Positions 12,001 to 15,000 of a DNA stretch of 64,000 nucleotides are shown one piece after another. Source of the DNA: Escherichia coli (GTDB taxonomy: Bacteria > Pseudomonadota > Gammaproteobacteria > Enterobacterales > Enterobacteriaceae); NCBI RefSeq assembly GCF_013315695.1, contig NZ_CP054353.1. One strand, given 5' to 3'. A program made the position numbers. Each line of letters begins with the position of its first letter. Position 1 is the first letter of the stretch.

Positions 12001-15000
12001 TTGTTTTTTAAGCGAGGAAAGATTTTGAGTGCGGGACGCCTGAATAAAAAATCTCTGGGTATCGTGATGTTGTTATCGGTTGGACTGCTTTTGGCGGGCT
12101 GCTCGGGTAGCAAATCATCCGATACAGGAACGTATTCCGGCTCCGTTTACACCGTGAAACGGGGGGATACGCTATATCGTATTTCGCGCACCACGGGAAC
12201 CAGCGTAAAAGAGCTGGCGCGACTGAACGGCATTTCCCCCCCTTACACCATTGAAGTTGGTCAGAAACTAAAACTGGGTGGGGCGAAAAGTAGCAGTACA
12301 CGTAAATCAACCGCCAAATCAACGACCAAAACCGCATCGGTTACACCGTCATCAGCAGTACCGAAATCTTCCTGGCCGCCAGTAGGGCAACGTTGTTGGT
12401 TATGGCCAACGACAGGGAAAGTTATCATGCCGTATTCGACAGCTGATGGCGGCAATAAAGGGATTGATATCTCAGCTCCACGGGGTACACCTATTTACGC
12501 TGCGGGTGCAGGAAAGGTGGTGTATGTGGGCAACCAGCTGCGTGGCTACGGTAATCTCATCATGATTAAACACAGTGAAGATTACATTACGGCTTACGCC
12601 CATAATGACACGATGCTGGTAAATAATGGGCAAAGCGTGAAGGCTGGGCAAAAAATCGCCACTATGGGGAGCACTGATGCGGCATCTGTTCGCCTGCATT
12701 TCCAGATTCGTTACCGTGCAACGGCAATTGATCCGCTACGTTACTTGCCGCCTCAGGGCAGCAAGCCAAAATGCTGATGGCGAATTAATCAGCAGTCAGC
12801 AGCGCGGCACTTGCTAAGGAGAGCGTAAGGTTTATAATGCCTTACGCATCTCGAAGCGGGCGTAGTTCAATGGTAGAACGAGAGCTTCCCAAGCTCTATA
12901 CGAGGGTTCGATTCCCTTCGCCCGCTCCAATTTATCTTCACCTCATCAATCTGCCATTTTTGCTGTATCTGATTTTCTATATTATCTTAATTCAATCGCT
13001 TCAGACTTTTCGCAATCGCTGTAACACTTCCCCATTTTTTTGTAAATAAAAAGCGTTTACGCAATGCAATCCTTTTGTAACAACCCAGGTAAAATACCTT
13101 ATTTTCAAGTTGTTAAATAAGTGGTTATCTACGCTTTTAACAAACGATTGATGGAATCTTTTATGAAAGGGAAATCTACATTAACTCTTCTGCTCGCTGG
13201 TATATTTTCGTACGGCACATGCCAGGCGGCAGGGGCAGAAGTGACGAGTGAATCTGTATTTAACATTCTTAATTCCACGGGGGCAGCAACTGATAAAAGT
13301 TATTTATCGTTAAATCCAGATAAGTATCCTAATTATCGTCTTCTGATTCACTCAGCCAAATTAAAAAATGAAATAAAGAGCCACTATACCAAAGACGAAA
13401 TTCAAGGATTGTTAACATTAACAGAAAATACACGAAAGTTAACGTTGACGGAGAAACCCTGGGGAACATTTATTCTTGCTTCTACTTTCGAAGATGACAA
13501 AACAGCGGCAGAAACCCACTATGATGCTGTCTGGCTGAGGGATAGTTTATGGGGCTATATGGCATTAGTATCAGATCAGGGAAATAGTGTAGCCGCAAAA
13601 AAGGTTCTGCTCACTCTGTGGGAATATATGTCTACGCCCGACCAGATTAAGCGGATGCAGGACGTCATTAGCAACCCAAAACGACTGGATGGTATTCCTG
13701 GGCAAATGAATGCTGTACATATCCGATTTGACAGCAACTCCCCCGTGATGGCAGATGTGCAGGAAGAAGGCAAGCCGCAGCTGTGGAACCATAAACAAAA
13801 TGATGCGTTAGGTCTTTATCTTGATCTCCTTATACAAGCAATCGACACTGGTACTATTAACGCTGAAGATTGGCAAAAAGGTGACCGATTAAAATCGGTT
13901 GCGCTGCTGATTGCTTATCTGGATAAAGCCAATTTCTATGTTATGGAAGATTCCGGAGCGTGGGAGGAAGATGCCCGATTAAACACATCTTCCGTTGCAC
14001 TGGTGACCTCTGGACTGGAACGTTTGTCAAACCTACTCTCGAAGAAAGACTCTGTTTTTGTCTCTGATTTACTACGCGAAGCTAAAGCCAATGAACTGGA
14101 TGAACCACTTTCAACAACGAGGTTGAACCACCTCATAGATAAAGGTTATGAAAGAATAACGCTACAGCTTGATTTAGGGGGAGAATCTCCTGGTTATCTG
14201 GAAAAAGATAAACATTACAGAGAAGCCGATGCGGCTTTACTTAATGTTATTTATCCTGCAAATCTTTCAAAGATAAACACCAGAAGAAAAGAGCAAGTTC
14301 TAAAAATAGTTAAAAAACTAGCAGGTCCGTATGGTATAAAAAGATACGAGAAGGATAATTATCAGTCGGCAAATTTTTGGTTCAATGATATTAAAACCGA
14401 TACCGATCAAAATTCACATGCGAAAAGAGAAATGAGCTTCATTCCATCAACAGAAGCAGAATGGTTTTTTGACTCATGGTATGCAAAATCAGCAGCAATT
14501 GTTTATAAAGAATCAAGAAAAGAAGAGTATTTGAATGACTCAGTGCAATTTATGAATAGATCATTGGCCCAAATAACAGGCGAGAAGGTAATGACTCCAA
14601 CTTATTGATAGTGTTTTATGTTCAGATAATGCCCGATGACTTTGTCATGCAGCTCCACCGATTTTGAGAACGACAGCGACTTCCGTCCCAGCCGTGCCAG
14701 GTGCTGCCTCAGATTCAGGTTATGCCGCTCAATTCGCTGCGTATATCGCTTGCTGATTACGTGCAGCTTTCCCTTCAGGCGGGATTCATACAGCGGCCAG
14801 CCATCCGTCATCCATATCACCACGTCAAAGGGTGACAGCAGGCTCATAAGACGCCCCAGCGTCGCCATAGTGCGTTCACCGAATACGTGCGCAACAACCG
14901 TCTTCCGGAGCCTGTCATACGCGTAAAACAGCCAGCGCTGGCGCGATTTAGCCCCGACATAGCCCCACTGTTCGTCCATTTCCGCGCAGACGATGACGTC

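Follow-up and report, generated by a model that had tools for sequence, protein, structure and literature searches.

The window analysed here, a stretch of 64,000 nucleotides of Escherichia coli DNA (contig NZ_CP054353.1), carries the tRNA gene glyU and, 233 bp downstream of it, an open reading frame (ORF) whose last codons lie within an insertion sequence. This ORF begins with an ATG at 13163, ends with a TGA at 14606-14608 on the + strand and encodes 481 aa; other in-frame starts are found at 13151 (ATG) and 13121 (GTG). It is a truncated allele of the known glucoamylase-family gene ygeQ/pkgA fused to an IS1 element. The features relevant to its structure and history are the following:

6658..7425, + strand: second IS1, in opposite orientation to the one that ends the ORF, lying between an eprH/prgH remnant and a 3' fragment of ygeV, which it joins; flanked by no target-site duplication
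7426..14586, no strand assigned: inverted segment ygeV-xdhCBA-actS-glyU-ygeQ, reversed against K-12 and against both flanks of the window (BLAST against K-12 loci)
12856..12929, + strand: glyU, tRNA-Gly(CCC) (ARAGORN; Rfam RF00005, 71.6 bits; tRNA-Gly in identical annotated RefSeq DNA)
13163..14586, + strand: native ygeQ/pkgA sequence (codons 1-474 and 2 further bases), coding for the N-terminal domain and the greater part of the GH15 (alpha/alpha)6 barrel
13163..13228, + strand: predicted Sec-type signal sequence, codons 1-22, MKGKSTLTLLLAGIFSYGTCQA followed by AG (hydrophobicity scan, lipobox regular expression)
13961..13969, + strand: W267-E268-E269 of the WEED motif (residues 267-270, bases 13961-13972), invariant in the alignment of 43 homologues
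14587..14608, + strand: foreign tail of the ORF, consisting of the third base of codon 475, VMTPTY and TGA, all from the IS1 terminal inverted repeat
14587..15354, - strand: IS1 (IS1A type), 768 bp, with insA at 15024-15299 and insB' at 14602-15105
15355..15992, + strand: 3' fragment of uacT (urate/H+ symporter) without the N-terminal half (Pfam Xan_ur_permease 249-386 of 389; RefSeq annotation)

The initial annotation had placed the end of the native frame at 14586 and had assigned the last six codons and the stop to IS1, and both statements proved exact, the element beginning at 14587 and supplying VMTPTY and TGA. Codon 475 is a hybrid in which AA comes from ygeQ and G from IS1, changing N to K, and the fusion protein thus ends in seven non-native residues, KVMTPTY, that replace residues 475-536 (62 aa) of the intact protein. 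The left end of the element, GGTAATGACTCC, faces the ORF, and its right end is GGCAGCATCACC (GGTGATGCTGCC at 15354). It has the length of 768 bp, the terminal inverted repeats and the insA/insB' pair with programmed frameshift that define IS1, and is 100% identical to RefSeq-annotated IS1A copies.

Identity, distribution and island context of ygeQ

In strains without the IS1 the intact gene measures 1611 bp and encodes 536 aa. Residues 1-474 of the window protein match this intact orthologue except for C17Y, and the DNA of ygeQ is 97-100% identical to that of other E. coli. From 6658 to 26896 the window shows 100% identity to strain MSB1_4I (NZ_LR898874.1), in which the identical fusion ORF bears the annotation 'glycoside hydrolase family 15 protein' (WP_271385619.1); this strain is the single one among 5426 complete E. 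coli genomes with the exact ygeQ-IS1 junction. The copies of K-12 and O157 Sakai (ECs3736/ECs3737) are, like that of the window, damaged alleles. In K-12 the gene is split into ygeQ (b2863) and the pseudogene ygeP (b2862); codon 265 is an in-frame stop, and IS2 interrupts the sequence after about codon 379, whereas the window frame is clean up to codon 474, where it is fused to IS1, and also has C17Y. In enteroaggregative strain EAEC 042 the counterpart is EC042_3075. Sequence of ygeQ is present in 3986 of the 5426 complete genomes, in every case on the chromosome, and in 2968 of the 5426 it covers at least 80% of the gene length; diverse truncated forms occur among these genomes, for example fragments 1-1025, 1-530 and 805-1611.

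Publications have already covered the gene, the family it resembles and the island in which it lies, and RefSeq already contains the same allele. In reviews of ETT2, a type III secretion island, ECs3736/pkgA and ECs3737 are listed as the last ORFs of a 29.9-kb island beside glyU (PMC3977695), ygeQ is described as a 'phosphorylase kinase and glucoamylase' homologue (PMC3977695; EC042_3075 in PMC2808357) and ETT2 is reported to be widely degraded (PMC3977695, PMC11068852). In the literature on ygeQ/pkgA we found no paper that evidently characterises the gene experimentally. The window copy occupies the same place as the known ygeQ/pkgA, downstream of glyU, where in intact strains an ortT/ydcX-like gene and eivF follow; the gene order in intact E. 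coli and E. albertii is actS-glyU-ygeQ-ortT-like-eivF-sctC. The G+C content is 40.2% in ygeQ and 38.5% in the adjoining ETT2 DNA; it is 49.6% over the window and 50-53% in actS and xdhA. Contiguity with the eiv/epa/epr genes beside glyU, together with low G+C, is thus found in intact strains, and in the window itself this contiguity has been destroyed by IS1. The gene order, the low G+C, the presence in part of the complete genomes and the many truncated forms support the view, also advanced in the initial annotation from the proximity of tRNA-Gly, that ygeQ is island cargo, being the glyU-proximal end gene of ETT2, and they fit the known attrition of this island. The decay of the window copy is of an ordinary kind, one more way in which ETT2 and its end gene degrade in E. 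coli.

Beyond what had been noted at first, the gene already has a name, its junction with IS1 involves a deletion and an inversion, and the lost tail holds the most conserved C-terminal motifs.

The IS1 junction, the inversion and the adjacent deletion

The element that ends the ORF is not flanked by a target-site duplication of 8-9 bp, its flanks being AGGCGAGAA and CGATGGGGA; this absence points to a later rearrangement and not to a different element. Beyond it lies the uacT fragment followed by yqfG, yqfH, idi and lysS, and in K-12 uacT and ygeQ are about 33 kb apart, with glyU between them. The segment between the two IS1 copies is inverted, and its left flank (ygeG-ygeO) and right flank (uacT'-idi-lysS) are collinear with K-12. 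In addition, the 27.7 kb that separate mid-ygeV from mid-uacT in K-12 are absent from the window. As in known IS1-mediated adjacent deletions and inversions, two inverted IS1 copies, neither of them flanked by a duplication, bound the inverted segment. The signature of a single replicative inversion, reverse-complement 9-mers at the IS1 flanks (inner and outer), was absent, which is consistent with several successive events. A third IS1 in the window (53962-54729) has a 9-bp duplication, CAAATCGCT.

The order of these events is suggested by isolate AF3, a close relative, which has the identical IS1-uacT' junction and 612 bp more on the ygeQ side. This additional DNA, 100% identical to intact ygeQ-ortT DNA, comprises the last 187 bp of ygeQ, a gene of the GhoT/OrtT family and a portion of the ortT-eivF spacer. 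Since AF3 shares the junction yet keeps the 612 bp, the window allele is best explained by an IS1-adjacent deletion or recombination in an already inverted lineage. In the proposed sequence, an IS1-bounded inversion of the glyU region would have come first, with IS1 joining the ortT-eivF intergenic region to mid-uacT; the 612 bp beside that IS1, containing the last 187 bp of ygeQ and the ortT-like gene, would then have been lost; and codon 474 would in this way have been fused to the IS1 end, giving KVMTPTY and the stop. We infer that the loss was an IS1-adjacent deletion made by the transposase or, equally, that two IS1 copies in direct orientation recombined. Further deletions, differing between MSB1_4I, AF3 and the window strain, all start at these IS1 ends; such differences between sister strains resemble those of known IS1-mediated adjacent deletions and are nothing unusual.

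Two unrelated strains have IS1B joined to ygeQ at nearly the same place, 1 bp earlier in ECCRA-119 and 4 bp later in VG888-46E9, with differing ETT2 remnants beyond the element, and in about 27 more complete genomes an IS1 lies within 600 bp downstream of ygeQ. The clustering of three independent junctions within 6 bp hints at a possible local hot spot for IS1.

Fold, conserved motifs and the missing C-terminus

The assignment to a GH15-like family was examined with profile searches, a structural model and an alignment of 43 homologues (38-99% identity). Pfam Glyco_hydro_15 (PF00723) matches the window protein with 25.2 bits and the intact orthologue with 25.6 bits, against a gathering cut-off of 22; the match covers residues 94-409 and only profile positions 16-309 of 427, and its margin is small. 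The same profile matches 37 of the 43 homologues at E<=0.01, and a scan of the fusion ORF with NCBIfam gave no meaningful match. The AlphaFold2 model of the intact orthologue, built from the 43-sequence alignment, has a mean pLDDT of 90.8 and a pTM of 0.91. Two hallmarks of GH15 are present, an (alpha/alpha)6-barrel catalytic domain and a general-acid glutamate in a WEE-type motif. The motifs pointed out in the initial annotation are both found and conserved among the 43 homologues, WLRDS at residues 124-128 (W124, R126, D127 and S128 invariant or nearly so) and WEED at 267-270, and its GH15-like reading is upheld by the profile match. The general acid of the Aspergillus niger glucoamylase, E179, sits in the same motif, as DLWEE. 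E268 of YgeQ aligns with Glu185 of the phosphorylase kinase (PhK) alpha subunit (HMMER alignment to 8jfk_M), which is one of the two catalytic-type glutamates described in the cryo-EM study of that enzyme (PMC10978961).

The closest solved relatives of YgeQ are the D1 domains of PhK alpha and beta and bacterial GH15 enzymes. In searches of the PDB sequences with phmmer and with a profile, PhK alpha/beta alone were matched and no GH15 enzyme was; an hhalign comparison of the family alignment with the A. niger glucoamylase (the sequence used being 100% identical to 3EQA) gave a probability of 4.5%, which is unusable. YgeQ has only 11-15% identity to GH15 enzymes (glucoamylase, glucodextranase, isomaltose glucohydrolase 5Z3A and dextran dextrinase) and differs from them by about 90 extra N-terminal residues. 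It also differs from the PhK D1 domains, which are cytosolic and lie within regulatory subunits of 1000+ residues, in being a stand-alone, signal-bearing bacterial protein. Intact YgeQ may accordingly be described as a GH15-clan, (alpha/alpha)6-barrel, glycosidase-like protein that is presumably exported. The label 'hydrolase' is itself inferred, because no glucoamylase activity is detectable in PhK alpha D1, which retains both glutamates (PMC10978961), and no member of the family has been shown to be active; in the literature we found no paper that evidently assayed hydrolase activity of the YgeQ/PkgA family. An alpha-glucoside, the default guess for GH15, may be its substrate. The gene neighbourhoods of seven homologues contain no conserved partner genes, and gene context therefore gives no functional clue.

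The initial annotation had raised the possibility that the true C-terminus is missing, and comparison with orthologues settled the point, the intact forms in E. coli, E. albertii, Yersinia and many other bacteria measuring about 500-560 aa and ending 62 residues later. The homologues are 490-610 aa long and come from E. albertii (77% identity), Yersinia enterocolitica (about 60%), Commensalibacter, Elusimicrobiota, Planctomycetota, Bdellovibrionales, Bifidobacterium and Clostridiales; none ends where the window protein does, all of them extending through the lost region. In the AlphaFold2 model the lost part forms a beta-hairpin (492-498, 501-506) and the final long helix (513-535), and it contains residues that are nearly invariant among the 43 homologues, namely P490, E491, S492, Y493, N494, P506, S507, P508, P511, L512, N513, W514 and K516. 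Judged by its motif and its position among the secondary-structure elements, E491 (in LPESYN) is the likely general base: LPESY resembles LLPELY around Glu371 of PhK alpha, and in the model E491 immediately precedes the hairpin and the last helix, a position as in glucoamylase. No alignment of the E491 region with PhK alpha Glu371 or with glucoamylase E400 reached significance; a phmmer search using the C-terminal 115 residues found no significant match for the catalytic-base region, and hmmsearch and pairwise alignment of the C-terminal region to PhK alpha residues 325-431 were likewise not significant, the pairwise score of 42.5 lying above the mean of the shuffled sequences (27.6) but below their maximum (47). 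E491 is absent from the window protein. Having lost one helix of the barrel together with the C-terminal motifs that are best conserved, the fusion protein is most probably an inactive, decaying remnant.

Alternative readings, export and the wider family

We hold with high confidence the account as a whole, in which the ORF is an IS1-truncated ygeQ/pkgA, the end gene of ETT2, cut by a deletion in an inverted lineage and probably left as an inactive remnant. Within it, the identity and fold of the gene, the extent of the truncation, the structure of the junction and the comparison with AF3 are shown, and the export route, the catalytic base, the loss of function and the course of the IS1 events are probable readings. 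A simpler history, in which IS1 just inserted into ygeQ and split it, the rest of the gene lying past the element, has a precedent in AF3, where an extra IS1 sits in ygeQ with a 9-bp duplication (window-equivalent 13918-13926). At 14587, however, the duplication is missing, the element borders on the 3' part of uacT and then yqfG-idi-lysS, and BLAST against intact loci matched nothing past the ygeQ-equivalent of base 14586, so that a plain insertion at this position is refuted by the flanking sequence and retains virtually no credence. Granted the deletion in an inverted lineage, the 481-aa protein could still work, either because its C-terminal 62 residues are dispensable or because a carbohydrate-binding role is kept. 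The fusion protein does preserve 88% of the intact protein, including the signal sequence and the WEE acid motif, and the ORF is uninterrupted and called intact by the annotation pipeline PGAP. Nevertheless, the lost part is among the best conserved of the family and includes a barrel helix, and PGAP marks as a pseudogene the near-identical truncation of ECCRA-119, only 1 bp away. Moreover, ygeQ is broken in many ways in E. coli, through the stop and IS2 of K-12 as well as in the fragments listed above, and this variety of lesions argues for relaxed selection. A functional fusion protein is in our opinion improbable, and an inactive remnant remains the reading we favour. The treatment of these two alleles illustrates that an annotation pipeline can take a 481-aa ORF fused to an IS for a complete 'glycoside hydrolase family 15 protein'.

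The remaining alternative concerns the intact protein, which would be an ETT2 type III effector acting on host glycogen metabolism, the truncation then removing an effector function. This role was proposed when pkgA was named, and the passages of later papers that cite it call it speculative (PMC2808357, PMC3977695). The gene ends the ETT2 cluster in both E. coli and E. albertii, and its product is homologous to the PhK alpha/beta D1 domain, which speaks for the proposal. The N-terminus of the protein speaks against it. A putative Sec-type signal is composed of K2, K4, a hydrophobic core spanning residues 5-19 and a CQA/AG motif, in agreement with the signal peptide proposed at the outset; residues 5-19 form a detached, low-confidence helix in the AlphaFold2 model, and a similar N-terminal hydrophobic segment occurs in 32 of the 43 homologues, several of which have a lipobox. 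The reference allele, with IFSC17, fits the PROSITE PS51257 rule (lipobox Cys at 15-35, K/R in the first 7; applied as a regular expression only), in agreement with the K-12 label 'putative lipoprotein YgeQ', and is probably lipid-anchored; the window allele has Y17 and its C20 does not fit the rule. A Sec-type signal, and in the reference allele a lipobox, is unexpected for a substrate of type III secretion systems (T3SSs). In addition, homologues of 40-60% identity are stand-alone genes, lacking T3SS genes in their neighbourhood, in Commensalibacter, Bifidobacterium, Elusimicrobiota, Bdellovibrionales, Clostridiales and Yersinia, and we found no paper that evidently tested secretion. Sequence and distribution thus depart from what defines a type III effector, T3SS-dependent export without a Sec signal; the spread of the family outside T3SS-bearing organisms, taken with the predicted signal, weakens the old suggestion, which we regard as having only a slim chance of being right, and would favour a periplasmic or envelope glycosidase-like role.

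The members of the wider family would then be exported GH15-like proteins and, among bacteria, the nearest relatives of the PhK D1 domain. Tentatively, and with the balance tilted against it, one may go further and see in intact YgeQ/PkgA a mostly exported, periplasmic GH15 subfamily of undescribed specificity, not an effector but a bacterial sister of PhK D1, and, separately, in codons 474-476 a hot spot for IS1 targets or deletion ends. Were the subfamily or the hot-spot reading true, neither would concern the window copy, which would stay a dead allele.

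Clustered IS1 junctions in ygeQ

Three independent IS1 junctions were found in codons 474-476 of ygeQ, all inside 6 bp: one shared by the window and strain MSB1_4I, and one in each of the unrelated strains ECCRA-119 and VG888-46E9.

IS1 junctions in ygeQ
Window 14581-14590, junction of the window and MSB1_4I
L016:4195-4205, junction in the ECCRA-119 locus, -1 bp relative to the window
L017:4200-4215, junction in the VG888-46E9 locus, +4 bp relative to the window

The elements involved are IS1A or IS1B, the DNA past the element differs among the three junctions, and the IS1 end is loosely similar to the native ygeQ sequence immediately beyond the junction. 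These codons may constitute a hot spot for IS1. The treatment of near-identical ygeQ truncations in RefSeq is inconsistent, since the IS1-fused 481-aa ORF of MSB1_4I is labelled an intact GH15 protein (L001:6364-7809), whereas in ECCRA-119 the truncation 1 bp away is annotated as a pseudogene with a missing C-terminus (L016:2765-4198). At the other end of the gene, a C17Y substitution in the signal sequence (codon 17, window 13211-13213), common to the window, MSB1_4I and isolate AF3, eliminates the cysteine by which the reference allele conforms to the lipobox rule for lipoproteins.

Other IS1 copies and associated losses

The second IS1 links a 34-bp eprH/prgH remnant with a 3' fragment of ygeV.

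Window 6658-7425, second IS1, lacking a target duplication

Compared with MSB1_4I, another 8.3 kb of ETT2 is missing in the window strain, extending from the remnant of sctN to prgH (L005:20240-28579; window side 1-6657). Also not in the window is a 27.7-kb block from mid-ygeV to mid-uacT (K-12 coordinates 3,004,494-3,032,180), the junction partners being window 7426 and 15355. As this block includes ygeW, ygeX, ygeY, hyuA, ygfK, ssnA, xdhD, xanQ, guaD and ghxQ, the purine-catabolism cluster has been mostly lost at this locus. Unlike the other two copies in the window, the third IS1 (53962-54729) is a simple insertion, because it is flanked by a clean 9-bp target duplication, CAAATCGCT.

RNA genes and the Yersinia homologue neighbourhood

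Two RNA genes identified with Rfam are core-genome features expected for the region.

Window 38135-38318, 6S RNA (ssrS), 139.8 bits
Window 38967-39117, Sib antitoxin RNA, 136.5 bits

In Yersinia enterocolitica (L007:3748-7440), the ygeQ homologue follows a divergent pair of ORFs, 848 and 326 aa long, neither with a Pfam match, and there is an invasin-like gene in the vicinity; the ORF pair was found again on a second contig (L008).
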